64,000 nt of DNA, taken from IMG/VR virus record IMGVR_UViG_3300046780_000922; one strand, written 5' to 3'. The notes under the pieces were generated by a model. The model had not been told where the DNA came from, searched no databases, and worked only from the letters and a program-made list of their open reading frames with translations. How positions within the stretch are numbered: position 1 is the stretch's first letter; every line of letters begins with the position of its first letter. This DNA is from an uncultured virus (IMG/VR IMGVR_UViG_3300046780_000922). Lineage: Duplodnaviria; Heunggongvirae; Uroviricota; Caudoviricetes. A program made the position numbers and the translations under genes. This document shows positions 38,646 through 63,782 of this stretch, piece by piece.

Positions 38646-39434
38646 CTACTTTAGCGCTTGATGAAGCCCGATCAAGCCGACACCGACGATACCGATCCCG
38701 AAGAGCACGCCCCAAGGGAGCGAGATGAGATCGCCGTCCTCGGTGAGCGGGGGCTCGTACGTGTCCGAATCGGTCGCGTCGCTGGCATCGCCGAGACCGA
38801 CGAGGCGCAAGGGACGCCTGCCCGTGCTCGGGGGAAGCGGCGAACCGATGCGGAGGCTACCGAGGCCGTTGACGGCCACCATCTGGGGCTGCGGGCTCGG
38901 GCAGGCATCGAGCTCGGGGCTGACGATGAAGCCATCGCGGCCGATGTTCACGCCGTGACTGATGAGCCAGGCGAGCGGATCGATGTTGTTCGTCCGGTAG
39001 GGCCCGGGGTACGGGCTCGCGCCCGTCGAGCGGGCGTGACGGACCTCCATGTGAAGGTGCGCCGGCATGCCCGGGAACTTGCCGTTGTTCATCCGGCCGG
39101 AGCGCCCGAGGAGCTGTCCGGGCTGCACCTCTTGGCCGATCGCCACGGCGACATCGCTCAGGTGCGCGTAGAAGCTCCAGAGGTTCTCGTCGGCGTGGAA
39201 GAGCGCGACCGCGTTCCCATAGCCCGAGAAGGGATTGCCACGCAGGCCGTCCTCTTCGTGCGCGATGTTCTGGACCACGCCAGCTCGAGGGGCGTAGACC
39301 GGCGTCCCTTCGGGTGCGCCGAAGTCCGTTCCGGCGTGGAACTGCGGCCGGCGAGAGGTGAAGCCCATGCGGGGGCCGAAGCGGGACCACAAGCGGGCAT
39401 CGCTCGGCGCCATCGGAGTTGCTGTTACGCACAT
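38646..39434 (-). CDS. M23 family peptidase with C-terminal membrane anchor
   Basis: HAGTD, YAHL, HLHMEVR; C-terminal TM. Confidence 0.9.
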   Translation of the reverse strand: MCVTATPMAPSDARLWSRFGPRMGFTSRRPQFHAGTDFGAPEGTPVYAPRAGVVQNIAHEEDGLRGNPFSGYGNAVALFHADENLWSFYAHLSDVAVAIGQEVQPGQLLGRSGRMNNGKFPGMPAHLHMEVRHARSTGASPYPGPYRTNNIDPLAWLISHGVNIGRDGFIVSPELDACPSPQPQMVAVNGLGSLRIGSPLPPSTGRRPLRLVGLGDASDATDSDTYEPPLTEDGDLISLPWGVLFGIGIVGVGLIGLHQALK

Positions 39435-39512
39435 GGGTCTATCGTAGCAGGCTACGCCGAGACTTTCCCACCTCTTGCGTGGGTGGGGGTTTGGTTGTAG
39501 GTTCGAGCAGCG

Positions 39513-39707
39513 TCACGACTCGCTCGTCTCGCTGCCTCGCAGGGGGCCGGTTCCTTCGGGAGTCGGCCTTCTGTTTTTGTACCGTGCGATCGCGTCGATA
39601 GCAGCTCTGTAGCTGGCTTCGGCTTGCTTCAGCCGACGCTCGGCCAGAGCAAGCTCGTTCTCGCGCTTCCGGGCGGCCTTCATCAAGGCCTCGAGCTGCT
39701 GATCCAT
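39513..39707 (-). CDS. small coiled-coil protein
   Basis: Helical ORF in operon orientation. Confidence 0.45.
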   Translation of the reverse strand: MDQQLEALMKAARKRENELALAERRLKQAEASYRAAIDAIARYKNRRPTPEGTGPLRGSETSES

Positions 39708-39714
39708 CTAACGA

Positions 39715-39987
39715 TCAGTCCTTGAGTCGCCAGATCGACGGGCTCATGACTTGCTGCAAGTCTTCCTGCTCGAGGAAGTCTTCGGGCGAGAACGCCCGCC
39801 GTCCAGCTTGCTCGTACCGAAGCACGTGGCCCACGGTCTCTATCTCCATGATCCACTGCTCGTCCCCAGTGCTCACGGATTCAATCGGCGTCCCGTCGTT
39901 GAACGTGAAGGTACCGCAGATCACGAGCACGTTCTCGCCAGTAGCCGTGCGTGCACGGCGCACCAGCGCGCGTCCGAGGAGCTTCAT
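39715..39987 (-). CDS. hypothetical protein
   Basis: Coupled ORF (MKLLGRAL...). Confidence 0.45.
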   Translation of the reverse strand: MKLLGRALVRRARTATGENVLVICGTFTFNDGTPIESVSTGDEQWIMEIETVGHVLRYEQAGRRAFSPEDFLEQEDLQQVMSPSIWRLKD

Positions 39988-40550
39988 TCCGCGTGCTCGA
40001 AGAAGTCGGCCGGCGGTTCCGAGTAGCGATGCATGCGACCGCCGTTCACGACGCCGCAGGTTGTGCACCAGTTGCTCTGATCGCCGGAGAGCTGCCACCC
40101 GCATATCGGACAGCGGTAGAAGAGGCCCCAACGATGCTGAAAGTCGCGACGAATCTCATGTTGCGCCGCGTGCTTGGTCCGCATCATGTCGCGCCGCAGC
40201 CGCTCGACCTCAGCGAGATCGCATGGACGAGGAGCGTTCGGTAGCGCGAGAAAACCCGCGACCACATCCAACGCGGCCTCGAGATAGGTCGTATCGACGA
40301 TCAGTGTCTTGATGGTGTCGCCCACACCGATGACCACATCCCCGTCGTCGCACACATCGATCGATGCGTAGCTGTCGGGGCGCGCGCCCGCCACGTGCAG
40401 AGTGATACCGCCCTCGGGGCACATCAAGGCGCGTCCGACCTGAAGTTGGCGAGAGCGCAATCGCGCCACGAGATCCCAAGCGCGCGCCCGGGTCGACACC
40501 GGCCCATCGATCAACTCGAGCTGCGAGCCGAGGGCCTCTTCTGTGCTCAC
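39984..40550 (-). CDS. hypothetical protein with C-terminal zinc ribbon
   Basis: CPICG...CTTCG. Confidence 0.5.
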   Translation of the reverse strand: MSTEEALGSQLELIDGPVSTRARAWDLVARLRSRQLQVGRALMCPEGGITLHVAGARPDSYASIDVCDDGDVVIGVGDTIKTLIVDTTYLEAALDVVAGFLALPNAPRPCDLAEVERLRRDMMRTKHAAQHEIRRDFQHRWGLFYRCPICGWQLSGDQSNWCTTCGVVNGGRMHRYSEPPADFFEHAE

Positions 40551-41269
40551 GACTGGGCCCGCTTCATCGCGAAGCGGATTCGCCCGCGTAGGACGTCGGC
40601 GAGCATCTCCGCGCGCGCGGAGATGGGCTCGAACTCGTGGTGCTCTTCCTGGACGGCAGCCAAGACGGTCTTGGCGGCCTCCGGCGCATCGGCCGCGAGG
40701 TAGGCCGCTGCGCAGTGCACGTACTCGTTCTCGAGCTCGGCGACGGGCGCGTAGAGCTGCACCAGCTCGAGCAGGGCGTTGAAGCTCGCGGCGTTCTGCA
40801 TCTCGGTCCAGAGCTGCCGGCAGATGGCTTGCCGAAGCGCCTCGATCTCGGGCACCGGCGCGAAGAGGACCCACGTGGGGGTGCCTTGGATGCGCACGAG
40901 GCCGTTACGCGTGAAATCCGTACCGTGGCTGTCTCCGCCGAGCACCGCGAGCGCCGTCTTGGCGTAGTAGCCGGCCTGCTCGAACTCGCACATCCCGAGC
41001 ATGAGCTCCTGGCGGAGCTGCACGGTGTGATCGAGAGTCCACCGGCCCAGGATGGCGACCGCATCACCGGGGCACTTGAGCATGTCGGTCTCGAACGGGT
41101 GCTGTGCTGAGACCGAAGCCGGAGTGGTAGCACCGATAGAGATGCTCATCGAGATGGGCTCGATCGGTGCGCTGCTGAGAGACCAGTCATCGAGACCGAG
41201 CACGCGGTAGACCGTCCGAGGGTTCTCGTACGTGCCTACCGCGTAGCTCAGCGCGAAGAGAGCGGTCAT
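40547..41269 (-). CDS. hypothetical protein
   Basis: 240-aa ORF coupled to neighbours. Confidence 0.6.
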   Translation of the reverse strand: MTALFALSYAVGTYENPRTVYRVLGLDDWSLSSAPIEPISMSISIGATTPASVSAQHPFETDMLKCPGDAVAILGRWTLDHTVQLRQELMLGMCEFEQAGYYAKTALAVLGGDSHGTDFTRNGLVRIQGTPTWVLFAPVPEIEALRQAICRQLWTEMQNAASFNALLELVQLYAPVAELENEYVHCAAAYLAADAPEAAKTVLAAVQEEHHEFEPISARAEMLADVLRGRIRFAMKRAQS

Positions 41270-41272
41270 CGA

Positions 41273-41713
41273 TCAGCTCACACCCGGGGGCGGTACAAAG
41301 CTGGTCGCTGCACCGTTCACCGGCGGCGCGGACTTCTTGGCCGCCCGGCGCGTGCGATCCTTGGCGAGCTTGGCTGCCTTCTGATCGGCGCTCAGCGCTT
41401 TGCGCGCCGGCTTCGCCTTGGCCTTGACCGGCTTGGCCTTCGCCGAGCGCGCGGAGCGCTTCACCGGCTTGGCCTTCGCCTTCGCCTTCGCCTTCGCCTT
41501 CGCCGGCTTGGCCTTCGCGGCCTTCTTGCCCTTCTTGCGGGCGGCCTTCTCCTTCTCGGCCTGACGGCCGAGCGCGCCCTTGCGGCCGGTGGCGATGTCG
41601 AGCATCTTGGCCTGCCCCACCTTGAACGAGACGCCCCAGGCCTTGGAGAGGTCCGCGATCGCCTTCTTGACCTCGGCCTTGGTGTACTTGAACTTCAGTT
41701 TCGACTTCGCCAT
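41273..41713 (-). CDS. histone H1-like Lys/Ala-rich DNA-binding protein
   Basis: KAAKAKPAKAKAKAKAKAKP repeats; AAGGA RBS. Confidence 0.75.
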   Translation of the reverse strand: MAKSKLKFKYTKAEVKKAIADLSKAWGVSFKVGQAKMLDIATGRKGALGRQAEKEKAARKKGKKAAKAKPAKAKAKAKAKAKPVKRSARSAKAKPVKAKAKPARKALSADQKAAKLAKDRTRRAAKKSAPPVNGAATSFVPPPGVS

Positions 41714-41727
41714 GATTCTTTCCTTCT

Positions 41728-41985
41728 TCAGAACATCCCGGGGACGGCCGCGAGCAGCCGCTTGAACGCGGCTTGCTGCTCGGCATTTTGCGAGGCGCGA
41801 TAGGCCGCGCACCAGCTCTTGATCGCCTCTTCACGAAGAGGATGACGCACGCTGATCCCCTCGCCCTCGGCGAGCCAGACGCGCTCGACCGGTCCCACGA
41901 TCTCGCCTCGCGAGAAGGTCATGTAGGATCGGTAATCGACCTGGGTAACCGTCGGCTCGGGGATCTGTACGTGCTCGATCGACAT
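41728..41985 (-). CDS. hypothetical protein
   Basis: Preceded by TTGACA-N17-CATGCT (42023-41995). Confidence 0.5.
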   Translation of the reverse strand: MSIEHVQIPEPTVTQVDYRSYMTFSRGEIVGPVERVWLAEGEGISVRHPLREEAIKSWCAAYRASQNAEQQAAFKRLLAAVPGMF

Positions 41986-42300: not shown

Positions 42301-42740
42301 CGATCGCGCACGCGGCCGGTATCGAGGATGTGGCGCAAGAGCGCGTCCTGTGTGTTCGAGAAGACCTTGATGGCGCCCTTGATCTCCTGAAGGACGCCGG
42401 TCGCCTCTTGGAGCATGTGGCCTTGGATCTCCATCTGCGCGACCACTGTGCGCAGGAGCTCGAACTGGCGTTTGTCGTTCTCGAAGTGCGCCTCGAGCGC
42501 GAGCTCGAACCGATCCATGTGCTGCGCCACCTCGCGCGCCAACATCTGCGCTGGCACTGACGGCTCGTGCGGATCGAGCGAGTGGTGACTCTTCGGGGCC
42601 GGAGGCGGCGCGAGCGAGCCCGTGGCGCCGTGGTGACGCACCGCGCGGTTGATGCGCGGTGCGAGCTCCTTCACCACGATGTAGACGAGGATGATCACGA
42701 CTGCGCCCCAGGGCCCCACCTTTTGAAAGAGATCGTCCAT
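42297..42740 (-). CDS. membrane protein with coiled coil
   Basis: N-terminal TM (GPWGAVVIILVYIVV). Confidence 0.6.
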   Translation of the reverse strand: MDDLFQKVGPWGAVVIILVYIVVKELAPRINRAVRHHGATGSLAPPPAPKSHHSLDPHEPSVPAQMLAREVAQHMDRFELALEAHFENDKRQFELLRTVVAQMEIQGHMLQEATGVLQEIKGAIKVFSNTQDALLRHILDTGRVRDR

Positions 42741-44104
42741 TACGCCACCCTCGTGATTCGAGAACCATCATCGTTCGCGGCCGGCGCCAGCGTATCGCCG
42801 ACGTTCGGGAGCGAGTTACTCGTGGTCGGTGCTTCACCGACTGCGTACTTGGCGATCCCCGCCGTGATGGCGGGCGCAGCTTCGTTCAAAAGCGCGTTTC
42901 CACCTCCGCGCCGGGCGACGATGCCGTAGCCCTGCACGGAGATAGAGATCGCAGTGGCCAGACCGGTGAGCTCGAACAAGCCGCCCGACTCCACCGTTAC
43001 GCCGATCCCATTGACGCCGGTTCCGACGAGCGTGCCTTTGCTGAAGGTGCACGCAGCGCCCCGCCAGACACGCAAGATCCCAGTCTGCTGGCCATTCTCC
43101 ATCTGGTAGCTACCGAATGGGTCGCCACCCACCACGAGCCGTGCGCCAGCGCCCTCGACGGTCACGTGGTCATCGCGCGAACGTCCGCCGAGCAGCTGCG
43201 TGTACGGATGGTTGCGCAAGTAGAGACCGTCCGTGGCGTTGACGTAACCGAAGAAGCCACCAGCGTCGGGCTCCTCTCGCGAGTAATAGGCGAGACCCGC
43301 GCCTAGGTACGCCTTCGATCCGCCGTTATATACGCGCTGCGGGCCGTAACCACCAAACGCAAAGACACCGGCCGGAGAGATCGACCCATCGACGCCAAGT
43401 AGGATCTGTGTTGCAGCGCCGTTCGTAGCGAGAATCAGTCCAGTGGTTGTCGACTTGCAGCGCCACCACGCCACGCGCCCATCGCAAACCACGGCCTTGT
43501 CGACAACGAAGTTTTCGAAGTTGAGCGTGGGCGCGAACGTGAACGCGGAGCCGAGTGATGTGGGCGTGCCGTACAAGACCGGAAAGATGCTGCCATCGAG
43601 GACGGTGACCGCATCTACGATCTCGTAGAGGTCGCCCTGCGCGACGGCCGCGGAGAAGTTACGCACCGGCGTGATGTCTGTCGCGCTGTTGTCCTTGATC
43701 AGCCGATAGTCACCAGCTGCCGCGCCAGTGAGCACGTGAATCCAGAAGTCGATGAACTGATCTACTACAAGGCCCGAGGACTTGATGGTGGTGACGGTCG
43801 AACCGACGAGTGCAGCCGTACTTGCGAGGATCGTGGTCTGGGGAACCGCGCGCACGTAGAGCTGGCCTGCACGGAAAAGCCGGGGCCGAAACGAGGGGCA
43901 CGCATAGGTGCCGGTCGTCAGCACTACGATCTGGATGTCAGTGTCGAAGCAGAGCGCTGCGGTACGCAGCTCCGCCTCGGTCAGCGTCTTGAGCGCAGTG
44001 GCTGGCGTGGCCCCGTCGTTCGTATCGAGGCCAGTCTGCCCATCGACGTAGACCGTTGCTGGCACGGCAGAACTGAAGACGGCGCTATTGATCGCGACCG
44101 TCAT
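42740..44104 (-). CDS. putative spike/receptor-binding protein (beta-helix-like)
   Basis: YVDGQTGLDTNDG...ALKTL N-terminal motif; Gly/Thr/Val-rich; shares a domain with 44522-46012. Confidence 0.6.
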   Translation of the reverse strand: MTVAINSAVFSSAVPATVYVDGQTGLDTNDGATPATALKTLTEAELRTAALCFDTDIQIVVLTTGTYACPSFRPRLFRAGQLYVRAVPQTTILASTAALVGSTVTTIKSSGLVVDQFIDFWIHVLTGAAAGDYRLIKDNSATDITPVRNFSAAVAQGDLYEIVDAVTVLDGSIFPVLYGTPTSLGSAFTFAPTLNFENFVVDKAVVCDGRVAWWRCKSTTTGLILATNGAATQILLGVDGSISPAGVFAFGGYGPQRVYNGGSKAYLGAGLAYYSREEPDAGGFFGYVNATDGLYLRNHPYTQLLGGRSRDDHVTVEGAGARLVVGGDPFGSYQMENGQQTGILRVWRGAACTFSKGTLVGTGVNGIGVTVESGGLFELTGLATAISISVQGYGIVARRGGGNALLNEAAPAITAGIAKYAVGEAPTTSNSLPNVGDTLAPAANDDGSRITRVA

Positions 44105-44111
44105 GATCGAA

Positions 44112-44522
44112 CTACTGGAACAAGATCGAGACCGAGATGTCGGCGGCCACCGTCGTCTGCTTGGCGTTCACCTGCACGGCCAGGTAGTCGCCGGCCAAGA
44201 GGTTCTGGAGCGCGGCCGACGCGGGTACAGTCGATGCTGTACCGAAGTTGCCGGCGCCACTTGCTACCGAGATGGTGCCAAGACTGGTCGGCGTGCCGCC
44301 GCGAACGCGGAAGACCTCGACGGTCGTCGTACCCGCGGCGCCGGCCACGCCCTCGCGCAAGGTCATCGTCTTGATGAAGCTGTCTACGTTGATCTCGCAG
44401 AAGCCACCGAAGGTAGAACCAGCAGTGAGCGTGCCGGCAACGCCGTTGACGATGGTCGAGATCACGCCGTTGAAGGCGAAGAGATACGTCGGGTGGTAGC
44501 CGCGGATTGCCGAGCCGGCCAT
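44112..44522 (-). CDS. beta-rich putative virion protein
   Basis: LLAGDYLAVQV...ADISVSI beta-sandwich pattern. Confidence 0.55.
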   Translation of the reverse strand: MAGSAIRGYHPTYLFAFNGVISTIVNGVAGTLTAGSTFGGFCEINVDSFIKTMTLREGVAGAAGTTTVEVFRVRGGTPTSLGTISVASGAGNFGTASTVPASAALQNLLAGDYLAVQVNAKQTTVAADISVSILFQ

Positions 44523-46012
44523 TAGGTGATCCTCACGATCAAAGATCCGTTGAGACCGTTGATGAGCGCCTGCTGCGCAGCACCGAGCGTAGCAGCTGCG
44601 ATCGTCGTCGTACCGCCATCGACCGAGAGGTCAGCGCCCGCAGGACCGAGTAGGCCCGTCACGCCTTCGAGGTAAGCCGCAGCACCCGAGCGAATGTCCA
44701 TACCCAGCGTCGTGCCCGCGCCTGAGGCGTTCGCGCTCGAACCGACCGTGAGCTTCACAGCACCCGTTGCACGCACGAGCACAGGTGCCGTCAAGAGCAC
44801 GCGGCGCAAGTACATCTCGAGGCTGGTCATGGTGTTGCCGCCGCTATTGACGTCGAGTGCAGCGTTGGTCCCCGCCGTGTTCGTCAACGCAACAGGCGGT
44901 GCGATCGCAGCGAGACTGCCGAGAATGGCCTGCGCGGTCTTAGCACCGAGACCGAACTGAAGCGGCGTCACGCCGTTCGTGATAGCTGACGAACCGCCGA
45001 CCCAGAGTAAGACCGAGCCGATGAACACCAACACCTGTACGTTGGTGGTGATGCCCGTGACGATGAACCCGCCCAGCGTCACCGTGGCGACCTGTAGGCC
45101 GGTCTTGCCGTAGAGGCCCCAACCGGACCAAGAGGTGTTGGACAGCGCGCCGTTGTAGGTCGTCGCGAGCGGCGCGACACAAGTACCCGCCGGCCACTGA
45201 CAGCCACAGATGATGGTGGCCCCGGCGCCGCCGATCGGAAGCTGCGATGTCGCGGTAGGACCGAACGCCTCACAACCGAAAAAGCCGACAACGCAACCAG
45301 AGAACATCCAGTTGACGAGCGCGGTTTGCCCGGCGAACTGGATGTTCGCGAAGATGAGCATCGGCGGAACAGCCGGTGACGGATTACCGAAGTACGAGAT
45401 GCCAGAATCGCCAATGCCGATGTCGAGCGCGGCGTTCTCGTTCGTAGTGATCAGGATCTTGACGACCGTCGCTGGCTCCAAGATGCGGATCGTGTCGTTG
45501 GCTGCGATGGCGGCCGTGAAGTTGCGCGAGGGGATGATGACGGTGTCGGTGTGATCGCGAATCGTGCGCAAGTCACCAGCGGCGGCACCCGTGAGCACCT
45601 GGATCGTCTTGCCACGGAACGTGTTGACACCGAGACCCGCAGGCGTGACAACCTGCACGTTACTCGAACCGGCCTGCGCGACCGTCGAACCCTGAAGAAC
45701 TGTGAAGCCGTCGCCACCCTGGCCTGCACCGTCTGCATAGAACACGACGTTGTCACGCAGGAGATGTGACTTGATCGTCTTGGTAAGCGAGTAGGTCGCT
45801 ACAGGTGCGGGCGCGATGTGCACCGTGAAGAGACCGGTGATCTCATCGAAGATGTTGAGGACATCGATCGCGTGGTCGATGGTCTTCCACGGAAGCGCGA
45901 TCGTGCCGGGATTGGAGTCGGACGCAGCCGCGGCATCGCCCGCGACGTAATAGTCGAGGTTACCACCGGTCTTGACGATCTGCCCCGCCGGTACTGCGCC
46001 CTCGTAACCCAT
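44522..46012 (-). CDS. putative spike/receptor-binding protein (beta-helix-like)
   Basis: YYVAGD...DSNPGT..LPWKTI; VLTGAAAGDLRTIRD...PSRNFTAA shared with 42740-44104. Confidence 0.6.
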   Translation of the reverse strand: MGYEGAVPAGQIVKTGGNLDYYVAGDAAAASDSNPGTIALPWKTIDHAIDVLNIFDEITGLFTVHIAPAPVATYSLTKTIKSHLLRDNVVFYADGAGQGGDGFTVLQGSTVAQAGSSNVQVVTPAGLGVNTFRGKTIQVLTGAAAGDLRTIRDHTDTVIIPSRNFTAAIAANDTIRILEPATVVKILITTNENAALDIGIGDSGISYFGNPSPAVPPMLIFANIQFAGQTALVNWMFSGCVVGFFGCEAFGPTATSQLPIGGAGATIICGCQWPAGTCVAPLATTYNGALSNTSWSGWGLYGKTGLQVATVTLGGFIVTGITTNVQVLVFIGSVLLWVGGSSAITNGVTPLQFGLGAKTAQAILGSLAAIAPPVALTNTAGTNAALDVNSGGNTMTSLEMYLRRVLLTAPVLVRATGAVKLTVGSSANASGAGTTLGMDIRSGAAAYLEGVTGLLGPAGADLSVDGGTTTIAAATLGAAQQALINGLNGSLIVRIT

Positions 46013-46924: not shown

Positions 46925-47109
46925 ACGCCCGAGCGGCGCACGAGGCGCGCGGCTTCCTTCTTGGCTGCGCAGGGAGTGCAGCCCTTGCGCTTCTTGGGCG
47001 GGGGCTTCCCGCCACCTGGCGGCGTGGCCGGCGCCTGCGCGAGGCCTTGCAGACCGGCCTCACCGACTGCGGCACCGTGAAAGAGAATCTGGGCCAGGAG
47101 CTTGTTCAT
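46921..47109 (-). CDS. small basic protein
   Basis: KKRKGCTPCAAKK; coupled ORF. Confidence 0.5.
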   Translation of the reverse strand: MNKLLAQILFHGAAVGEAGLQGLAQAPATPPGGGKPPPKKRKGCTPCAAKKEAARLVRRSGV

Positions 47110-47483
47110 CGTCGCTTCCTCCTACGGAGGAAAAGATAGCCCGTCGAGGCCGTGGAGAGGAGCGCGGTGGCGATGAACGCCGCACGCTCGGAGCTCGTGA
47201 GCTGGTAGCCGGCCACGGCCTGCCCGAACCCCCAGAGAGCGGTCGAGACGTTCGAGCCGATGAGCGCGCCCATGCCGTCGCCCGCCGCCAGGTAGCCCGT
47301 GAGCGCCCCGCCCACGTTGACCGCGAGCAGCGCCACCCCGTGGAGCGCCCACCGCCTGGCGGCCTCGCTGTAGACCGCAGGGGGCAGGGTGACGTCGCCG
47401 AGGCCTCGGCCGGCGAGCTGGCCCTGGAGCCGGCGGCCAGTCATCGCGTGGTACGGGAGGTAGATTTCCTCAATCCGTGCCAC
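47106..47483 (-). CDS. multi-TM membrane protein with RGLGD motif
   Basis: AAGGAG RBS, GTG start; TMs; RRRKRR tail. Confidence 0.6.
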   Translation of the reverse strand: MARIEEIYLPYHAMTGRRLQGQLAGRGLGDVTLPPAVYSEAARRWALHGVALLAVNVGGALTGYLAAGDGMGALIGSNVSTALWGFGQAVAGYQLTSSERAAFIATALLSTASTGYLFLRRRKRR

Positions 47484-50214: not shown

Positions 50215-50218
50215 GGTG

Positions 50219-53611: not shown

Positions 53612-54202
53612 TCAGTTCCCCGGCGTCCCGAAGGCCGACGGGTTGATCGAGCCCACGTTCACGCTCTCGCCGTAGGCGCCGGAGATCCCGTAGCGACGGT
53701 AGGGGTTGCGATTGGCCGCGGGCTCCATGACGATGCCGCGCGCGCCGGGACCCATGAGGTTCTGCGGAATCACGACACCCATGCGACCCGAGACGCCGTT
53801 CGGCACCGGCGCAGGCACGGGCACACTCGACGTGGCGATCATCGCAGCGGCGCGTGAGCTCATCACTGCATCGTGGGCAAGAAGAATGCCCGCGGTGAGC
53901 GATCCGGCCGAGGCTTGCATGAATGCAGCGGGGGCACCGGCCAAGAAGTAGATCAGCGCCGATCCGACGCCGTTCACGGCGAGCCCGACCAGCGGCGCCC
54001 ACTTGAACATCGCGGCCTGCGTGGCGCCCTGGCTGGGATCGACCCAGTAGCGCAACCCGAGCGCGGTCAAGCCAGCGAGGATGACGCCGAGAGCGGGAGG
54101 AGCAATGGAGCCCAGCGCCGAAGCCGGCTGGTTGAGCGCCCCGATGCCCTTCATGCGGCGAATGGTGATCAACGAACCGGTTCCGTGGTGCTTGCGTGCC
54201 AT
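53612..54202 (-). CDS. multi-TM virion membrane protein with MKGIG motif
   Basis: Basic N-terminus, three TMs, GGGAG RBS. Confidence 0.65.
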   Translation of the reverse strand: MARKHHGTGSLITIRRMKGIGALNQPASALGSIAPPALGVILAGLTALGLRYWVDPSQGATQAAMFKWAPLVGLAVNGVGSALIYFLAGAPAAFMQASAGSLTAGILLAHDAVMSSRAAAMIATSSVPVPAPVPNGVSGRMGVVIPQNLMGPGARGIVMEPAANRNPYRRYGISGAYGESVNVGSINPSAFGTPGN

Positions 54203-54237: not shown

Positions 54238-54522
54238 TCAGCCTTTTCTGTCCTGGACGTGGAACTTGGTGCTGGCTCGGCCCTTCTTGGTGAACGCCTG
54301 CGCAACACGGTCTGCGGTTCCCTTGTCCTCGTAGCAGTGCACCACCTTGCCCTTGTGGGAGACAACGCAGTGCGAACCTTTGCCCTTACTTCTCGGCTTG
54401 CGCGGCTTCTTCGCCGGAGCCGCGTGCGTCTCGATGACGAGCGGCGCTGATCGGGAGAGTGGGACCTTGATGTCTGTCTCTCCCGACTCGCAATGGCAGT
54501 CGCCGAGACCGCCGAGCTTCAC
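54238..54522 (-). CDS. small basic Cys-containing protein with LGGLGD motif
   Basis: GTG start coupled to the upstream stop; KKPRKPRSKGK; C...CY. Confidence 0.55.
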   Translation of the reverse strand: MKLGGLGDCHCESGETDIKVPLSRSAPLVIETHAAPAKKPRKPRSKGKGSHCVVSHKGKVVHCYEDKGTADRVAQAFTKKGRASTKFHVQDRKG

Positions 54523-55058
54523 CTGTGGCGCCCCTTCCGGCGCTTCGTCCACCAACGCACACCGAGGAGCAAACCGATTGCTCCGAACACACTGACGCCG
54601 GTCCAGATCGCGACCGTCATCACCTTCGAGCCCGTGGCCGCAGCCGTCGCCGACGCGACCTCGTTGCGGAGATTGCCCGCCAGATCCGAGAGACGCGTGA
54701 GCTCGTCTTGCCACGCCTGAAGCGTCGAGTCATCGAGCGTCGAAACCCGGTCCGAGAGGCGCTGCGAACCGGACGAGACCTCGTCCATACGGCTGATCCA
54801 GTCAGCCTGCTGCTGAGGATCGACGATGTTGCTTTGCGCAGCCTGATTCAGGAGCGCGGTGATCTCATCGAGCACGGCGAAGAGATCGTTGACGCGGCCG
54901 AGCAGCTGCTCTTGGTAGGTGTTCGTGATCGTCGTACCAAGACCGCGAATCCTACGCGCGCCCATCGGCACCATCGCCGCCGACTTCATCGCGGGCGCAG
55001 AGTAGTTCACGTGCGAACGGACCGCGCCGAATGCCGGCTTCTTCGTGTAGAGGCTCAT
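54519..55058 (-). CDS. C-terminally anchored coiled-coil protein with IRGLG motif
   Basis: Start MSLYTKK; C-terminal TM + KRRKGRHR. Confidence 0.65.
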   Translation of the reverse strand: MSLYTKKPAFGAVRSHVNYSAPAMKSAAMVPMGARRIRGLGTTITNTYQEQLLGRVNDLFAVLDEITALLNQAAQSNIVDPQQQADWISRMDEVSSGSQRLSDRVSTLDDSTLQAWQDELTRLSDLAGNLRNEVASATAAATGSKVMTVAIWTGVSVFGAIGLLLGVRWWTKRRKGRHR

Positions 55059-56129: not shown

Positions 56130-56672
56130 TCAGGTTCCCTTGCGCTTGCGGGTCAAAAAGAAGATCGCTGCCAGCAAGCCGGTGACAGCAACCACTGGTG
56201 GCCCCCAGGACCACGCGAACTGCGCGAACGACGACGACTTAGCCGCCGCGTACGGATTGGGCGGGATCACGAGCTTACCCGAACCATCGGAGGCGAAAGT
56301 CTGTGCGATCGTGCTGGGCCCGGGCGCCAGCATGATCGGCGGGTCGGACGGGGCGTCCATCGTGCCCGGGTTGACGTCCGGGGTGTTGAGCGCCGAAGCC
56401 GCGTTGATGAGCGAGCTCATGCTCGGATGTGCAATCGAACTGCCCGAGTAGTCCGCCGTGGTCGTGGCGGGCTGCTGCGCCTGAAGTTGCGTCTGGTAGC
56501 GCTGGAGCGCCGAGAGCAACTGCACCGGGCTGTAGGTCGCCGTGGCCCGCTGCACCATCGTCAACGATTGCGTCATCGGCAAGCGCAGCATGGTCCCGGC
56601 CGCGACCGGGCTGGGGATGTCGGCCGAGCCCGCGCCGAGTCCGCGAATGTTGTAGCGTCGCGCGACGATCAT
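56130..56672 (-). CDS. C-terminally anchored protein with IRGLG motif
   Basis: Start MIVARRYNIRGLG; C-terminal TM + RKRK. Confidence 0.65.
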   Translation of the reverse strand: MIVARRYNIRGLGAGSADIPSPVAAGTMLRLPMTQSLTMVQRATATYSPVQLLSALQRYQTQLQAQQPATTTADYSGSSIAHPSMSSLINAASALNTPDVNPGTMDAPSDPPIMLAPGPSTIAQTFASDGSGKLVIPPNPYAAAKSSSFAQFAWSWGPPVVAVTGLLAAIFFLTRKRKGT

Positions 56673-57103
56673 CAGAGTGCCGCCTTGAGAGCGAGCGCGC
56701 CCACGAGCACGATCGCACCGCCAATCACCCACGTCGCAGGCTTCTGGTACCAGGGCGTCAGCGCGCTGGCGTCGGGGCAAGAGAAGTTCGTCACGCCCGC
56801 CGCGAGCACGCGCTGTTGAAAGCCGGCCGGATCGGCCGCACAGACCTGCGCCATCAAGTTCTGCGTCGGCAGATCCGCATTGGTCGCCATCGCCATCTGC
56901 TGGACCATGCACTGACATTGGCCAGTCCCCATCGAGGTACCGGTCGGGACGATGGTGCCGCCGGGCGGGGGTACCATCGGCGGCATCGGAGGCGCCGCAA
57001 CGTTCGCCGCCGCGTCCCCGTACTGCGCGCTCATCGCCGACACGAGCGCACGGGCGGCTGTCATGTCCAGCCCGAGTCCCTGCACGCGACGCATGATGAG
57101 CAT
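56672..57103 (-). CDS. C-terminally anchored protein with VQGLG motif
   Basis: AGGAG RBS; MLIMRRVQGLG; C-terminal TM. Confidence 0.65.
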   Translation of the reverse strand: MLIMRRVQGLGLDMTAARALVSAMSAQYGDAAANVAAPPMPPMVPPPGGTIVPTGTSMGTGQCQCMVQQMAMATNADLPTQNLMAQVCAADPAGFQQRVLAAGVTNFSCPDASALTPWYQKPATWVIGGAIVLVGALALKAAL

Positions 57104-57141: not shown

Positions 57142-59091
57142 TTATCTGGTCGCCTTGTACAGGAGCAGACCGCCGAGACCGAGTCCGAGCGCACCCAGAA
57201 CCACCCAACCCGTGTAGTTGGCGGGCGGCTGAATCGGTGGTCCGGGCGTGAGCCCCGGACCGAACGAGGGGAGTGAACCAGGCGCGGCCGGCGTCGCCGT
57301 CGCTGCAACGTCGTGCCAGACCGAGACGGGGAGACCGGCCGAAGCGGCGGCCTGAATCGCCGTGGCGCGAGCCACGACCGCCTGCGTGTTCCCGTCGCTC
57401 GGATCGAAGTCACACGCAGCGTCAGTCGAGCTCTTGATCATGCGCATGACGGGCGGAGGGATGCAGGCGGCCTCCCAACCGAACGTGCCCGCAGCGAGCG
57501 CACCCGAGATCAACTTGGCCAGCGCTTCGACCAGCGCACCCACCGCAGCGATGATGGCGCCGACGACCGTACCGACGACGGGAATGGCTGCCGCGATCCC
57601 TGCGGCGAGCCCGAAGATCGGCGCGATGACTTCCGAGGCGTCCTGAAAGGCCTTCTCACTGAGCGCGTTGCGGAGCGCGGCGAGCGAAGCAGACGCGAGG
57701 TTGTGATACTGCTCGGGGATGATCGCGATCGCGTCGAGGTACGCCTGAAAGCCGTTCGCAACCATCGTCTCGAACGACGTGTTCACAACATCTTGCGCCC
57801 AAGCGATGCAGAGCTTGATCTGGAGCGCAGCCGAGGCCCACCAGAACTTCGTGGACACCGTGGCCATGGACGAGCGCACAGCCACACCGGAACCGCTGCG
57901 CGTCATCCGGGCCCGCGCGTAGAAGTTGCCTCGCTGAGGCACGAAGTCCGACGCGCCGAGCGTGGTCTGGTACCAGAGCTGCATCCGGCGCGAGATCGAA
58001 CTGTCGGCCGCCGAGACAACGACCCAGCTCGCCGGCCACGGAGCTCCGGTCGTAACGGCCTGTCCCATCGTGGCCATCTGCGCCGCGACATCCCGCGAAT
58101 CACCCATGCCGCGAGCCGGCGGGAGCGGATCGAAATCACCCCAGACCGTGTCCGTGTTGCAGGTGGTCGTGCCCGGGTAGGCGACGGCGGTCGCGGCCTT
58201 CTCCGGCGAACAGGCGAGCGTGCTCTTACGCGAGACCGGGACTGCGATCGCGCGATTGCTGCCGGGCCCGAGCGCGGGGAGACCACGAGCCGTGTCATCC
58301 AGAACGAACGGACCGACGGCCGGCTCGAGCAAGGACATGTTGACCGCCGTGCACGGCTCGAAGTCGGCCGCCACGCGCGGGAAGACAAAGGCGGCCTTGT
58401 AGTCGACGGCCATCACGCTCGGCTTGAAGAGATTGACGAGCAGCTGGTCTTTGAGCGGATAGAAGTCGTCGGCATTGACCCGCGAGGGGGCGGCCACACC
58501 GCGGAGATCGATCGAGGCGTGGTCCGCGAGCACCTGCTGGAGCACGGCCTGCGCGGCCGGCATGTCGTTGACGTCCGGCAAGTAGCCGGGATGGATGTTC
58601 GTGGCCCAGCGCGACATCGTCACGAGCTGCATGACCTGCCGGCACCAGTCGACCCACGCCGAGGCGTAACGGGGCTGGTTGTTGTCGACCGTCAAGCCCT
58701 GCTGGCCACCGGGCGTGGCCGCGAGCAGGTGCGCGAGCTGCGTCTGGCACCACAGATAGCGATCGGCCTGAAACATGACCTGGAGATAGGCCTGCGCGTC
58801 ACACGCGCGATCCACCTGGATGAATCGCCAGTTGCACATCGTGCCGCCTTCACCGGCCTGATTGCACGTCGTGAGATCGGGGTTACCAGTCGCAGCGCAG
58901 CGGGTGCCGTCGACCGGCCGGGCCTGCGCTGCGTACGCGCCATCACGCGCCCACATCGTGCTCGGCGCAACGCCGCTGATGTGCTCGAGGACGTCACTAC
59001 CGAGGTGAGTCGCGACGAACGACGACAGGCGCCCGGCCAGCTCTTGGGCCGTGGGCATGTAGAACGTCGTCTGCGGGCTCGTACCAGTCAC
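57142..59091 (-). CDS. large membrane-anchored putative virion protein (possible DNA delivery)
   Basis: 649 aa; internal hydrophobic hairpin AAIPVVGTVVGAII; C-terminal TM. Confidence 0.7.
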   Translation of the reverse strand: MTGTSPQTTFYMPTAQELAGRLSSFVATHLGSDVLEHISGVAPSTMWARDGAYAAQARPVDGTRCAATGNPDLTTCNQAGEGGTMCNWRFIQVDRACDAQAYLQVMFQADRYLWCQTQLAHLLAATPGGQQGLTVDNNQPRYASAWVDWCRQVMQLVTMSRWATNIHPGYLPDVNDMPAAQAVLQQVLADHASIDLRGVAAPSRVNADDFYPLKDQLLVNLFKPSVMAVDYKAAFVFPRVAADFEPCTAVNMSLLEPAVGPFVLDDTARGLPALGPGSNRAIAVPVSRKSTLACSPEKAATAVAYPGTTTCNTDTVWGDFDPLPPARGMGDSRDVAAQMATMGQAVTTGAPWPASWVVVSAADSSISRRMQLWYQTTLGASDFVPQRGNFYARARMTRSGSGVAVRSSMATVSTKFWWASAALQIKLCIAWAQDVVNTSFETMVANGFQAYLDAIAIIPEQYHNLASASLAALRNALSEKAFQDASEVIAPIFGLAAGIAAAIPVVGTVVGAIIAAVGALVEALAKLISGALAAGTFGWEAACIPPPVMRMIKSSTDAACDFDPSDGNTQAVVARATAIQAAASAGLPVSVWHDVAATATPAAPGSLPSFGPGLTPGPPIQPPANYTGWVVLGALGLGLGGLLLYKATR

Positions 59092-59095: not shown

Positions 59096-59317
59096 CTACC
59101 TACGCGCGGGCCGGTAGAAGTAGATCGAGGTCAGAAGACCGCCGATCAGCAGGCCCCCAACTGCACCCACGGCCATGCCGACCCAGAGATCAGTGAGCGG
59201 ACCGATGGCCGAACCCGGCTGCGTCTGACCGAGACGACGACCGAGACCAGACGCACGAAGCGCCTGATGCTCGAGCGCGTGCGCGATCAAAATCTGCTGA
59301 GGGACCTGCTGCGGCAT
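59096..59317 (-). CDS. small membrane protein with SGLG motif
   Basis: GGAGG RBS; C-terminal TM. Confidence 0.6.
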   Translation of the reverse strand: MPQQVPQQILIAHALEHQALRASGLGRRLGQTQPGSAIGPLTDLWVGMAVGAVGGLLIGGLLTSIYFYRPARR

Positions 59318-59325: not shown

Positions 59326-59880
59326 CTACTTCCGCAGTGCGAAGAAGACGCCGACCGCACCGAGCACGCCGATCGCCGCCAGCCCGCCGTAGAACACGCC
59401 GGGGCTAAGGCCGAGGATCATGTGCTGCGCCTGCATCTGCGCCTGCGCGGCCATCATCTGGGCCTGCGACTGTTGCTGCATCGTGAGCTGCTGGATCTGC
59501 GCCAGCGCTGCGGCCGTGGACTGCGCGGCCGGGTCGGACGAGATGACCTGCCCGGCAGCCTGCGCACGCGCGGCCGTGCATGCCGCGTTGAACGCGGTCG
59601 TGGCGGCCTGCACGCCCGTGCCGGCCTGCTGCCAGCCCTGGTCGTGCTGAGCCGCGAGCCCAGCACCGATACCGGCCGTCAGCGTCGAGATGAGCGCCGA
59701 TGCCGGATCGTTACACATCTCGGCCGCAGTGAGACCGAGATGTCCGCGCATCGAGTTGATCGACGTACCGCGCTGGCTGCGCCCCATGCCGGCAAGCACG
59801 AGCTCACCCAAGACGCGACCGGGCGGAGGCCGATACGCGCCAGCCACCGGCAGCCCCGAGAGAGTCATCACACGTGCCAT
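59326..59880 (-). CDS. C-terminally anchored protein with LAGMG motif
   Basis: AAGGAG RBS; Gln/Ala-rich; C-terminal TM + RK. Confidence 0.65.
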   Translation of the reverse strand: MARVMTLSGLPVAGAYRPPPGRVLGELVLAGMGRSQRGTSINSMRGHLGLTAAEMCNDPASALISTLTAGIGAGLAAQHDQGWQQAGTGVQAATTAFNAACTAARAQAAGQVISSDPAAQSTAAALAQIQQLTMQQQSQAQMMAAQAQMQAQHMILGLSPGVFYGGLAAIGVLGAVGVFFALRK

Positions 59881-60495: not shown

Positions 60496-60804
60496 TCACT
60501 TGCAGGCGACGGTGATGCGCTTGCCCGTCTTGCTCTTGCGATGCGCTTCCTTCGGCAAGCGCGCGGCCACGCCCACCTCACAGAACGCATGATGACCGCG
60601 GATGCGACAGCCCTTGCGGATCTTGCCCTTCTTGCCGCCCGACTGGACGATCGCGCAGGCCTTGGGCACCTGCTTCTTGAGCGAGGCGCCGCTCGAGACG
60701 TGCGTCCACGTCTTGCCCTTGGCGCAAGACGGGCTCTTGCACGAGCCACTGATTCCTGCCCGGCGCATGACCGAACGAGCCTTCCGAGAATGACGCTTCG
60801 CCAT
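60496..60804 (-). CDS. small basic Cys-rich protein
   Basis: Start MAKRHSRK; very Lys/Arg-rich; GAGGA RBS. Confidence 0.6.
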   Translation of the reverse strand: MAKRHSRKARSVMRRAGISGSCKSPSCAKGKTWTHVSSGASLKKQVPKACAIVQSGGKKGKIRKGCRIRGHHAFCEVGVAARLPKEAHRKSKTGKRITVACK

Positions 60805-61098: not shown

Positions 61099-61656
61099 TC
61101 AACGACCCTTGCGCTTTCCGAACCCTTGCGCGATCGCCACGGGCACGGTGATGACCGGAAAGAGCCCGCCCATGAGCGCCCACCAGAGCGCCCAGCCGAC
61201 GGAGTTGTTGCGCTTGAAGCCGTGATAGGCGCCGAGGCCAGTACCGATCACGGAGGCCGAACCCCAAGCCGCTGCCGCGACCTTCTCTTGCCACGAGAGC
61301 GCCTTGGTGACGTCCGAGACCGGACCGAGCGAGGAGGGCGTCTGCAAAAGCTGCGAGACAGATGTAGGCCCACTTGCCGCATCATCGCCGAGCCCGATGA
61401 GGCCCGCGAGGCGCCCGAGCTGCGTGACGGGATTGAACTGCGCGAGCGGATAGGTCGGTGCACCCCCGCAGTCCTCGTAAGTGCCCTGCTCGCCGCAACC
61501 CTTCGCAGTCGCCCGCAAGAGGTTCTGCTGCACCTGTGGCGTCACCCCGAACTGTGGGAAGCGGTACTGAAAGACGTACTGCGGATGCGGGGCAAAGGGG
61601 CCCTTGCCGCCGGACTGGATCATCGGACGACCCGAGTATGTAGGATAGAGCGGCAT
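61099..61656 (-). CDS. membrane protein with LIGLGD motif
   Basis: AYHGFKRNNSVGWALWWALMGGLFPV; basic tail. Confidence 0.65.
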   Translation of the reverse strand: MPLYPTYSGRPMIQSGGKGPFAPHPQYVFQYRFPQFGVTPQVQQNLLRATAKGCGEQGTYEDCGGAPTYPLAQFNPVTQLGRLAGLIGLGDDAASGPTSVSQLLQTPSSLGPVSDVTKALSWQEKVAAAAWGSASVIGTGLGAYHGFKRNNSVGWALWWALMGGLFPVITVPVAIAQGFGKRKGR

Positions 61657-61868
61657 CACTTGATCCAAACGCGGCCGTTCTTGTACCAAGCCACCGTTTC
61701 GTACGGCTCACCAGGAACAACGTGCAGCACACGAGCACCATGTGGGCGACGTGATGCCTTCTTGGCAGCTGCTTTCGCAGCTGCTTCACTCACGAAGCAG
61801 CGCGGCGCCTGCGTGATCCCTCCGGCGTCCTTGGTGTATACGCAGAAACGCTTTCGCTTCTTTGCCAC
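61656..61868 (-). CDS. small basic protein
   Basis: KKRKRFCV...RCFVSEAAAKAAAKK; GAGGA RBS. Confidence 0.6.
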   Translation of the reverse strand: MAKKRKRFCVYTKDAGGITQAPRCFVSEAAAKAAAKKASRRPHGARVLHVVPGEPYETVAWYKNGRVWIK

Positions 61869-61874
61869 TGATCC

Positions 61875-62486: not shown

Positions 62487-62491
62487 GCTGA

Positions 62492-62845
62492 TCAGCCCTT
62501 CTTCTTGGCGAGCTTCTTCGCAGCCGTGAGCGCACGAGCACGAGTCCGGTACGCCTGAAAGCCACCGACCGTGCTGATCTTCCCACCGCAGGCCATCCGC
62601 ACCGTATACGCCCGCGCATCGTTCGAGCGCGGGCGCTTCTCCGAGGTCACGAAGAACGAACAGCGACAGGTCTTGCCCGGGATGACCTTGTCGATCACGC
62701 GGCTCCCGAAGAACCGCATCGAGCCCTTGTCGAAAAAGTGCGTGCTCACCGCGCTCTTCGAGGCATTCGCCTTGATCTGCGAGATCGACGTCACGCACTT
62801 GCGTGCACGACGCCGACGACGCGACCCACCGCCAGAGAGCGCCAT
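62492..62845 (-). CDS. basic phage protein
   Basis: LSGGGSRRRRR; HFFDKGSMRFFGSR...FFVTSE...YTVR pattern. Confidence 0.65.
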   Translation of the reverse strand: MALSGGGSRRRRRARKCVTSISQIKANASKSAVSTHFFDKGSMRFFGSRVIDKVIPGKTCRCSFFVTSEKRPRSNDARAYTVRMACGGKISTVGGFQAYRTRARALTAAKKLAKKKG

Positions 62846-62847
62846 GG

Positions 62848-63093
62848 CTACCGAGCCGCGCGAGCTGCCCGGCCGCGCTTGTAGATGAGCGCCGACTTGA
62901 CGCGATGGCCGGCCTTGCCGCTCACCGCCCGCATCAAGAAGAGATGTGCCGCCTTGGACGTCGCGAAGCACTTCGTGTGCGCCGAGCTCTTCTTGGTGCC
63001 CTTGCGGACGGTCACGCAAATCGGGCCACGCCCGTGCGCCTTCTTCCGACCGAGACCGCTGGTGTGACGACGCCTGCGCTTCTTGTGAGCCAT
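62848..63093 (-). CDS. small basic protein with SGLG motif
   Basis: AAGGAG RBS; MAHKKRRRRHTSGLGRKK. Confidence 0.65.
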   Translation of the reverse strand: MAHKKRRRRHTSGLGRKKAHGRGPICVTVRKGTKKSSAHTKCFATSKAAHLFLMRAVSGKAGHRVKSALIYKRGRAARAAR

Positions 63094-63161
63094 CGCGGAG
63101 TCTCCTTGGGCACTGGGCCCTCGAAGACTTCCTACCAGGCACGTTTCGAAGCGTTCAGGGA

Positions 63162-63782
63162 TTATTGGTCGAACATCGGGAAGTCGCGGAACGCGGCCGG
63201 GTTCGGAACGTGCCAGCCAGGAGGCTTCCCGGGAACCGTCATGTCGAGCGGGATGAACGTCTGCGGGTTGTCCTTGGGGCAACCTACGATCGGGAAGACA
63301 TGCTCCCACTGCTCGCCCTGCGTCGAGATCACGCGAGCGAAGCACTGCGTGAAGCCGAGCGCGCGAGCGATCGCACAAACGGCCACGGTCTGATCGTCGC
63401 AGTCGCCCGAACCGGAGAGAAGCGACACCTTGAGCGTGGCGAACGTGTCCGCCGAATCGGGATCGTAGACATAGCGCATGTTCTCTACGAGGAACGTCCA
63501 GATCGCGCCGAGCTCGCAAGCGTCATCCTGCTGCACGCAGACTTCCATCGGCGGCGCATGGAAGCGCTTGCCCCACGCTTCGACGACCGGAAGACGGCGG
63601 CCTGTGCGGGGATCCTCCACGTAATCGAACGTCCCCGAGACGATCTTGCGTGCGAGCATGATCGTCTCGGGGTCCTGGAGACTCTCGTCGACCTGGCGCT
63701 TCACCAGCGCCATGTGGCCGTCGAGGTCATCGGAGAGGAAGAAGCGCGCCTGAGTGACCTGGCCGCGGGCGGGTCTGGGCAT
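63162..63782 (-). CDS. transglutaminase-like (papain-fold) cysteine protease
   Basis: MRYVYDP, GDCDD (Cys), WEHVF (His), IPLDMT (Asp). Confidence 0.82.
   Translation of the reverse strand: MPRPARGQVTQARFFLSDDLDGHMALVKRQVDESLQDPETIMLARKIVSGTFDYVEDPRTGRRLPVVEAWGKRFHAPPMEVCVQQDDACELGAIWTFLVENMRYVYDPDSADTFATLKVSLLSGSGDCDDQTVAVCAIARALGFTQCFARVISTQGEQWEHVFPIVGCPKDNPQTFIPLDMTVPGKPPGWHVPNPAAFRDFPMFDQ

Follow-up and report, generated by a model that had tools for sequence, protein, structure and literature searches.

A Gly-Leu-Gly motif shared by virion-block proteins of an uncultured bacterial virus, and a LapG-like enzyme that may process it

In the 64,000-nucleotide stretch of IMG/VR record IMGVR_UViG_3300046780_000922 analysed here (the window), which is most of the ~73-kb genome (73.3-kb contig) of an uncultured bacterial virus, a block of particle genes on the minus strand encodes many proteins that carry one short word, G[LIM]G, and the first conserved gene of this block encodes a transglutaminase-like enzyme (63162-63782). 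The motif is real, conserved and specific to the virion block. We tentatively read it as a processing site and the enzyme, which resembles the bacterial protease LapG, as the protease that would act on it, a reading drawn from sequence and held with somewhat less than even confidence.

The particle block comprises 43 tightly packed open reading frames (ORFs) on the minus strand, running from 63782 down to 38646 and encoding about 8,240 amino acids, and it is rich in small, mostly tail-anchored membrane proteins (~20 membrane proteins in the block) and in several very basic small proteins. An earlier note on this DNA had proposed that proteins of the 38.6-63.8 kb region share a short glycine-containing motif, and comparison with shuffled sequences bears this out: the 43 ORFs hold 27 G[LIM]G words, against 11.7 ± 3.6 expected from whole-protein shuffles and 14.0 ± 3.6 from 15-residue local shuffles (P about 0.001), and 18 of the 43 proteins bear it when 9.3 would be expected. 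The other 37 ORFs of the window show no excess (9 sites, 8.6 expected). Among the 20 possible G-x-G words, only the one with x = L is clearly enriched (16 observed; 6.6 and 8.4 expected from whole and local shuffles, respectively); G-I-G and G-M-G are weakly raised and the remaining 17 are not. Outside hydrophobic stretches the count is 24 versus 10.7, and when this strict control is combined with L, I, M or V at position −2 from the first Gly it is 12 versus 2.5. Longer words are also in excess, with G[LIM]G-D found 6 times versus about 0.5, [LIM]xG[LIM]G 9 times versus 1.8 (whole shuffles) or 2.7 (local), and [LIM]xGxG, the adenovirus type-1 word, which lies on several particle proteins, 21 times versus 11.5 (whole) or 13.4 (local).

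The residues ahead of the motif carry a signal of their own. In a pooled analysis of 109 non-hydrophobic sites, selected by G[LIM]G alone and spread over the window together with 19 related loci (201 distinct proteins), position −2 was L, I, M, V or F in 52% of sites (25% background) and acidic in 1% (8% background), and at position −1 Arg and Asn stood at 3.0 and 3.1 times their background. Since a hydrophobic residue is enriched at −2, the word can be written hydrophobic-x-Gly-Leu-Gly (φ-x-G-L-G), which matches the type-1 adenovirus protease site, (M/I/L)XGX-G, described in PMC3386624; the adenovirus type-2 site is (M/I/L)XGG-X.

All 12 motif instances listed in the earlier note were found in the genes to which it had assigned them. 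The typical carrier is small, has a single C-terminal membrane helix with a basic tail after it, and bears the motif near a basic N-terminus; the motif usually lies in the first 10-40 residues after a basic stretch, as in MIVARRYNIRGLG, MLIMRRVQGLG, ARRIRGLG and ITIRRMKGIG, or in a linker ahead of a conserved membrane domain. The non-membrane carriers, at 62848-63093 and 54238-54522, are very basic and small. The carriers are given below in the order of the block (L numbers denote loci), together with the one protein whose start, MALSGGG, contains the LSGGG that the earlier note had pointed out.

62848..63093, minus strand: small very basic protein with TSGLG at residue 13 (nucleotides 63049-63063); TSGLGR is found in the window, L002 and L004 and is absent from L006 (three of four).

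62492..62845, minus strand: basic DUF7447 protein starting MALSGGG, which is not a G[LIM]G site (Pfam E = 7.6e-19; PHROG 4655, unknown function).

61099..61656, minus strand: membrane protein with LIGLGD at residue 88 (nucleotides 61387-61401), upstream of a conserved C-terminal membrane domain.

59326..59880, minus strand: tail-anchored membrane protein with LAGMG at residue 31, kept in one of four orthologues (L004, LVGLGR).

59096..59317, minus strand: small membrane protein with ASGLG at residue 24; no orthologue found.

57142..59091, minus strand: largest membrane protein of the block (649 amino acids) with ARGMGD at residue 328, absent in nine of nine orthologues.

56672..57103, minus strand: tail-anchored membrane protein with MLIMRRVQGLG at residues 1-11 and the motif at residue 9; orthologues have GIG (L082), GLG (L083) and GVG (L004).

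56130..56672, minus strand: tail-anchored membrane protein with MIVARRYNIRGLG at residues 1-13 and IRGLG at residue 11 according to the instance list.

54519..55058, minus strand: tail-anchored membrane protein with ARRIRGLG, motif at residue 39; G[LIM]G is found in one of four orthologues (L004, VAGLG).

54238..54522, minus strand: small basic Cys-containing protein with N-terminal MKLGGLGD, motif at residue 5; no orthologue found.

53612..54202, minus strand: membrane protein with a poly-basic N-terminus, HGTGSLITIRRMKGIG, and the MKGIG motif at residue 19.

47106..47483, minus strand: membrane protein with GRGLGD at residue 27, in a variable N-terminal region.

38646..39434, minus strand: M23 metallopeptidase with a C-terminal membrane anchor and, in its linker, VNGLG at residue 190 and LVGLGD at residue 213 (Pfam Peptidase_M23, E = 2.6e-21).

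Positional conservation, a second expectation of the earlier note, holds for the N-terminal sites and fails for the internal and M23-linker sites. N-terminal sites and those in linkers other than that of the M23 protein hold their position while the surrounding sequence drifts. In the 56130 family, G11-L12-G13 is invariant in four of four sequences, and the sequence just after it is variable, with insertions and deletions. Of the 17 rows in the alignment of the 61099 family, 12 show G[LIMV]G and the remaining five x-L-G, and the spacing to the conserved C-terminal domain is constant even though the N-terminal part ranges from ~12 to ~90 residues. Among 11 orthologues of the 53612 protein, the aligned position reads G[LIMF]G in nine, SLG in one and GAE in one, and most have a second G-x-G-S upstream. 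In the 47106 family (13 members), G-L-G is found in five and x-L-G in another three; two sequences begin just past this position. ARGMGD at residue 328 of the 57142 protein is probably a chance site. On the basis of this survey, about eight to ten sites look functional. Tat, prepilin-type, lipobox and sortase-like C-terminal signals were set aside by sequence inspection, with no predictor run, because there is no hydrophobic core after the motif, no Cys after it and no shared word before the C-terminal helices.

The excess recurs in relatives of this virus. Relatives of the enzyme are encoded on 159 metagenome stretches; the 80 best were retained as loci, and 24 loci were tested for excess. 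Among the loci with sequence downstream of the enzyme gene, 11 of 24 show an excess at P ≤ 0.05, as do seven of the eight with at least 2,000 amino acids downstream (for example, 12 versus 4.2 in L004, 13 versus 4.9 in L010 and 9 versus 4.2 in L036); some related loci are near-duplicates, so these locus counts are not independent. The gene order that the relatives have in common is the enzyme, a 61099-like, a 57142-like and a 53612-like gene, three paralogues of 225-240 amino acids, and a 50219-like and a 49222-like gene. A complete relative, G002 (76,963 bp with terminal repeats, CheckV 100%; L094-L097), repeats the pattern of the window, with 14 sites versus 6.85 in its particle block (P = 0.008) and 8 versus 8.7 in its remaining 90 ORFs. 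Among loci with distant enzyme relatives (25-38% identity), one of 12 reaches P < 0.05 (L077, 11 versus 5.2), and the summed count is 46 versus about 30. A different, repeat-borne use of G-L-G is seen at positions 1284-4151 of L013, where a 955-amino-acid protein repeats G-Y-D-I-(D/N)-L-(D/N)-G-L-G several times.

If the excess arose from the Gly/Leu-rich composition of membrane proteins, through glycine-zipper-like segments, the motif would have no function. Some G[LIM]G sites do lie inside transmembrane helices (residue 246 of the 38646 protein, residues 636 and 638 of the 57142 protein), and the late block of the Thermus phage P23-77 (L099) has a raw G[LIM]G count of 15 versus 7.2, mostly in Gly-rich or hydrophobic stretches, which means that a raw Gly-φ-Gly excess is not unique to this virus family. 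We nevertheless consider an origin in composition very improbable, because the excess in the window remains when shuffling is local and when hydrophobic stretches are left out, because only Leu is clearly enriched and the flanking positions carry signal, because sites hold position in orthologues amid variable sequence, and because the late proteins of PRD1 show no excess (2 versus 5.7). The present family stands apart through its extended word, which is placed after basic N-termini and keeps its position in orthologues. Small membrane proteins of P23-77-like viruses may generally favour Gly-hydrophobic-Gly.

The second component of the proposed system is the enzyme.

63162..63782, minus strand: candidate transglutaminase-like (LapG-like) Cys-His-Asp peptidase of 206 amino acids, characterized by Pfam, AlphaFold2, Foldseek and profile search.

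It scores 27.3 bits against Pfam Transglut_core (PF01841; cut-off 23, E = 4.6e-6), and 18 of its 24 close metagenome homologues have a precomputed PF01841 match. The Cys-His-Asp signature that the earlier note had picked out (GDCDD, HVF, PLD) is present and conserved: D127-C128-D129 and H161 are invariant in the 24 homologues, and residue 180 is Asp in 20 of them and Glu in four. Acidic residues flanking the Cys of LapG-type enzymes have a role in relation to calcium. The AlphaFold2 model (pLDDT 92.4, pTM 0.88) has a sole Foldseek match at E ≤ 0.001, Pseudomonas fluorescens LapG (4u65_E, E = 4.8e-4, TM 0.41/0.46), and a family profile searched against all solved chains also returned LapG alone at E ≤ 0.001 (E = 3.7e-6 over 91 positions, with GDC[DE]D aligned). 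VIA alignment against representatives ranked the putative protease 3kd4 first (Z 12.5), followed by LapG (Z 9.9, rmsd 3.4 over 130 residues) and the putative cysteine protease 3isr (9.6), with factor XIII and transglutaminases 2 and 3 (9.1-9.4), PeiP (9.1), PNGase (8.8) and PeiW (8.7) as the next neighbours.

LapG is a calcium-dependent transglutaminase-like cysteine protease that, as described in PMC10990149, releases an N-terminal module from the adhesin LapA by cutting it at a di-alanine site. As the nearest solved relative (4u65, 4fgo), it has the fold, the Cys-His-Asp triad and the G-D-C-(D/E)-D signature in common with the viral enzyme, and as a site-specific endoprotease that takes off an N-terminal module at a small-residue motif (PMC10990149) it also resembles the activity proposed here. 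The two differ in setting: LapG cuts one adhesin at Ala-Ala in the periplasm, whereas many viral proteins carry G-L-G here, and the viral enzyme falls far below the NCBIfam cut-off for LapG and shows no signal peptide or hydrophobic N-terminus, nor any other hydrophobic segment, in a hydropathy scan, a dedicated signal-peptide predictor not having been run.

The Transglut_core match, and the presence of factor XIII and transglutaminases 2 and 3 among the structural neighbours, could also be taken as signs of a genuine transglutaminase, with particle proteins being cross-linked by the enzyme and the motif marking its substrates. We find this hardly credible. Both the sequence search and Foldseek put hydrolases closest, and the cross-linking tag that the earlier note had entertained finds no support because the motif holds neither Gln nor Lys.

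The same note had placed the enzyme at the head of its operon. Relatives do have the gene in first place in their syntenic particle blocks, but in the window another ORF on that strand, cut off by the window's edge, terminates upstream at 63904, leaving 121 bases to the enzyme start, and no sigma-70-like site was found in this interval. The upstream gene varies in relatives, being a divergent DUF3987 protein in five of six loci with upstream sequence and a same-strand M23 peptidase in L037. The enzyme is thus the first conserved gene of the particle block and not a proven operon leader.

A cultured virus encodes a homologue. In a tblastn search of 50,697 phage records, the enzyme matched only gp34 of phage SSIP-1 (L098 21296-22210; 28.7% identity over residues 80-187, E = 7e-5), and hhalign of the enzyme family against gp34 gave a probability of 97% (E = 1.6e-11) with the Cys, His and Asp aligned. 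The database record calls gp34 a structural protein, and SSIP-1 is described in PMC6356626 as a membrane-containing phage of PRD1-adenovirus-type architecture with two capsid protein types. SSIP-1 therefore resembles the present virus as a membrane-containing icosahedral phage with an enzyme homologue annotated as a structural protein; it differs in its 44-kb genome, in capsid proteins that are not detectably similar to those here, and in the C-terminal membrane helix of gp34, which has the word R-G-M-G-E in the linker between catalytic domain and anchor. G[LIM]G is raised in the late block of SSIP-1 (13 versus 7.6, P = 0.03), and gp37, gp53, gp36 and gp52 are among the proteins with an R/P/Q-G-(L/M)-G word. 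With gp34 as a cultured relative of the enzyme, bench tests are feasible.

Proteolytic maturation at a shared consensus site is known from tailed phages, adenoviruses, poxviruses and asfarviruses. In the pathway that we propose, the motif would be the recognition site of a virus-encoded processing protease, for which the conserved LapG-like cysteine peptidase at 63162-63782 is the leading candidate; apart from an M23 peptidase, Pfam recognised no other protease-like protein in the window or in G002. While the particle is being assembled or afterwards, the enzyme would trim off the basic leaders at the N-termini or cut domains apart, much like the adenovirus protease (AVP) or gp21 of phage T4. 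The bond cut might be G-L↓G, as in adenovirus, or might follow the second Gly, with Leu occupying the S2 pocket in the usual manner of papain-like enzymes. That the motif is cut, that this enzyme cuts it and where the bond lies are all points that we infer from sequence.

The adenovirus enzyme, adenain, belongs to MEROPS family C5, clan CE. Its system and the present one are alike in that many otherwise unrelated particle proteins, including very basic ones, bear a hydrophobic-x-Gly-x-Gly word and that a cysteine enzyme is encoded with the particle genes. The words themselves are close, with IRGLG, LVGLG, LIGLG and MKGIG here beside IVGL↓G, the pVI site given in PMC4246237. They differ in the enzyme, which here has the order Cys128-His161-Asp180 and a transglutaminase/LapG-like fold as opposed to the adenain/Ulp1 fold with His-(Glu/Asp)-Gln-Cys, and in that type-2 sites are not enriched here, the carriers are mainly membrane proteins, the host is bacterial and cleavage is only proposed. 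No adenain-type family appeared in Pfam scans of the window, and no coding-frame match to an adenain-like His/Asp/Gln/Cys spacing pattern was found in the particle block. The label 'adenovirus-style' that the earlier note gave to the system thus fits the enriched type-1 word φ-x-G-L-G and does not extend to the type-2 word or to the fold and clan of the enzyme.

We caution against taking processing of the motif by the LapG-like enzyme as established, for several results count against it. With 11-14 sites expected anyway, about half of the 27 observed are attributable to chance and the other half to the excess, and the N-terminal bias of the motif is only suggestive (10 of 24 non-hydrophobic sites within the first 50 residues versus 26% expected, P = 0.07). 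The adenovirus type-2 word (M/I/L)XGG-X is depleted in the block (6 versus 11.6 from whole and 13.8 from local shuffles). Both M23-linker sites are kept in none of three orthologues, and internal sites at residue 328 of the 57142 protein, residue 48 of the 47939 protein and residue 70 of the 59326 protein are kept in none of nine, four and four, respectively. Residues upstream of the motif are also conserved, namely M-I-V-x-R-R in the 56130 family and G-S-I-I-T-V-R-R in the 53612 family, an arrangement that a functional element at the N-terminus would explain no less well than a leader that is cut away. As to the enzyme, the fold does not settle whether it is a protease, a transglutaminase or an amidase, because transglutaminases, PeiP/PeiW and PNGase are among its neighbours, and its only NCBIfam match, the LapG equivalog, scores 15.4 bits where the cut-off is 320. 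Two loci show no excess (L016, 0 versus 2.1; L017, 1 versus 2.7). Under the strict control, SSIP-1, in which the enzyme is present, has a non-significant 11 versus 7.9, with 1 versus 1.9 for the hydrophobic −2 form, and P23-77, in which no such enzyme is annotated, has 11 versus 6.3 (P = 0.04) without the −2 feature (2 versus 1.5). We used the capsid-protein family to look in viral and genome collections for a long locus of this virus family that lacks the enzyme, but every family locus that came up either encodes it or ends before the position where its gene would lie, which leaves the comparison without a natural enzyme-minus control. The adenovirus-style protease of the earlier note is partly supported, being upheld in its transglutaminase-like fold, with LapG as nearest solved relative, and weakened by the strict control in SSIP-1 and the excess in P23-77.

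The main rival is an element that is not cut. The motif could serve in docking, sorting or as a hinge, a short basic β-strand and Gly-Leu-Gly turn by which membrane and core proteins would be anchored to the capsid shell, an assembly factor or the DNA, and the enzyme would then have another task. The conserved residues before the motif favour such an element, and the fixed distance between the motif and conserved membrane domains, the single architecture of many carriers (tail-anchored with a basic C-terminal end) and the raw Gly-φ-Gly excess in P23-77, which has no such enzyme annotated, point the same way. We regard it as unlikely, though not to be lightly dismissed, in view of the motif's presence in non-membrane basic proteins and linkers, of the conserved peptidase-like enzyme encoded in the same block and of the standing of hydrophobic-x-Gly-x-Gly as a classical protease site (PMC3386624).

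The motif could also be cut by a protease other than the LapG-like enzyme, either the membrane-anchored M23 protein (38646-39434) or an unrecognised viral or host protease, leaving the LapG-like protein as a cell-wall or entry/lysis enzyme like PeiW and PeiP. M23 enzymes such as lysostaphin and LasA cut next to glycine, and an M23 peptidase is present in the window, in G002 and beside the enzyme gene in L037. The pseudomurein endoisopeptidases PeiP and PeiW are structural neighbours of the enzyme (Z 9.1 and 8.7), and many block ORFs have no recognised family: four exceed Pfam cut-offs, including the M23 peptidase, DUF7447 and Transglut_core, with nothing else of note, and a scan of the block against PHROGs added no names beyond M23 and one family of unknown function. 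We nonetheless think another protease improbable, as the NCBIfam matches of the M23 protein are all peptidoglycan endopeptidases and below cut-off, the M23 gene is seen in only some relatives and the search for adenain-like spacing in the coding frames of the block was empty. Processing by the LapG-like enzyme, at the tentative strength given above, remains the reading that we prefer.

The particle to which these proteins belong is probably an icosahedral jelly-roll capsid above an internal membrane. Its probable major capsid proteins follow the 53612 gene in the block and lack the motif.

52833-53552, minus strand: likely jelly-roll protein, first of three paralogues of ~225-240 amino acids, probable major capsid protein, without the motif.

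52096-52812, minus strand: second paralogue, as above.

51406-52083, minus strand: third paralogue, as above.

The three are 28-30% identical to one another and have 73 metagenome homologues, none of them named. The model of one 225-amino-acid paralogue is a β-sandwich (pLDDT 79) with no Foldseek match at E ≤ 0.001, the weak rows being nearly all jelly-roll capsid proteins. In a wide structural alignment its top matches were the single jelly-roll capsid proteins of SPV1 (Z 7.2), HCIV-1 (6.5) and HHIV-2 (6.3), with VP17 of P23-77 lower (5.3); every Z is below 8, so that the jelly-roll fold is likely and kinship unproven. Two larger paralogues (330 and 367 amino acids; 49222-51322, minus strand) come after the three tandem ones and both match the same ORF of L008, which makes five related or adjacent candidate capsid proteins where the known single jelly-roll membrane viruses have two; an ESM Atlas look-up of 50219-51322 returned low-confidence, uninformative rows only.

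In Pfam scans of the window and of G002, no terminase, portal, HK97-type capsid protein or FtsK/HerA packaging ATPase came up, which, together with the ~20 membrane proteins, points towards a tailless particle with an internal membrane. No Walker A motif was found in the coding frames of the particle block, a search that divergent ATPases could escape. The Sphaerolipoviridae (HCIV-1, HHIV-2), P23-77 and SPV1 are the closest known systems, in that their capsid proteins are the best structural matches of the 225-amino-acid paralogue (Z 7.2-5.3) and that capsid-protein paralogues stand in a row with many small membrane proteins before and after. The present virus differs from them in having three paralogues plus two larger ones, with Z scores that stop short of proving kinship, and in its ~73-77 kb genome with a family-A polymerase and no recognised packaging ATPase.

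Two large paralogous Gly/Thr/Ala-rich proteins with an internal segment in common (42740-44104 and 44522-46012, minus strand) are probably spikes or fibres, and a 448-amino-acid particle-block ORF of G002 has a pectate-lyase-like match. The block also encodes a set of small, very basic, Cys-containing proteins (55793-55990, 56002-56127, 60496-60804, 61656-61868, 62848-63093, 54238-54522, 62492-62845 and 41273-41812), including the one DUF7447 protein and one Lys/Ala-rich, histone-H1-like protein; these small basic proteins may be DNA-condensing core proteins, which would be unusual in a bacterial virus.

One match to the capsid genes in genome collections lies on the chromosome of a Gemmatimonadota metagenome-assembled genome (L089, L092/L093), as a ~13-kb fragment of the particle block that is flanked by 100-base masked stretches and host-like genes, has RGLG sites and is without the enzyme. 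Such a fragment might be what is left of a prophage, or might have arisen through faulty assembly or binning, and as it is only ~13 kb long, the host assignment that it offers is weak and it does not make a clean enzyme-minus control.

A wider proposition joins these elements: in large (73-77 kb) bacterial membrane jelly-roll viruses, a particle-associated cysteine protease, recruited from the LapG/transglutaminase and not the adenain fold, would trim the basic leaders of a dozen membrane and DNA-condensing proteins at hydrophobic-x-Gly-Leu↓Gly. Site and strategy would both have evolved convergently with those of adenovirus, and no prokaryotic virus built in this way would have had a maturation protease described before. 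We put this forward as a possibility that is on balance doubtful. As far as the account in PMC8328091 goes, no maturation protease has been identified in the Tectiliviricetes, and we found no description of shared-site proteolytic maturation in the literature searched on prokaryotic tailless membrane-containing viruses. If true, the proposition would supply a testable maturation pathway for an undescribed and widespread virus family, given the 159 metagenome stretches that encode enzyme relatives, as well as a new specificity class of transglutaminase-fold proteases and a striking convergence on the adenovirus site.

Elsewhere the window, which has a G+C content of 64%, carries on its plus strand (1-27 kb) a phage-type replication set that includes an SNF2 helicase, a RecD-like helicase, a PD-(D/E)XK nuclease, AAA_24 and DUF669 proteins, and a family-A DNA polymerase fused to a uracil-DNA glycosylase domain. 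The fusion is a single 993-amino-acid ORF (14165-17146, plus strand) with the uracil-DNA glycosylase superfamily domain at its N-terminus. An integrase gene follows this set.

27584-28504: integrase.

The window also has two host-like metabolic genes, one for a di-haem cytochrome c peroxidase-like protein (22959-24347, plus strand) and one for a UDP-N-acetylglucosamine 2-epimerase (37485-38642, minus strand), which comes directly after the particle block.

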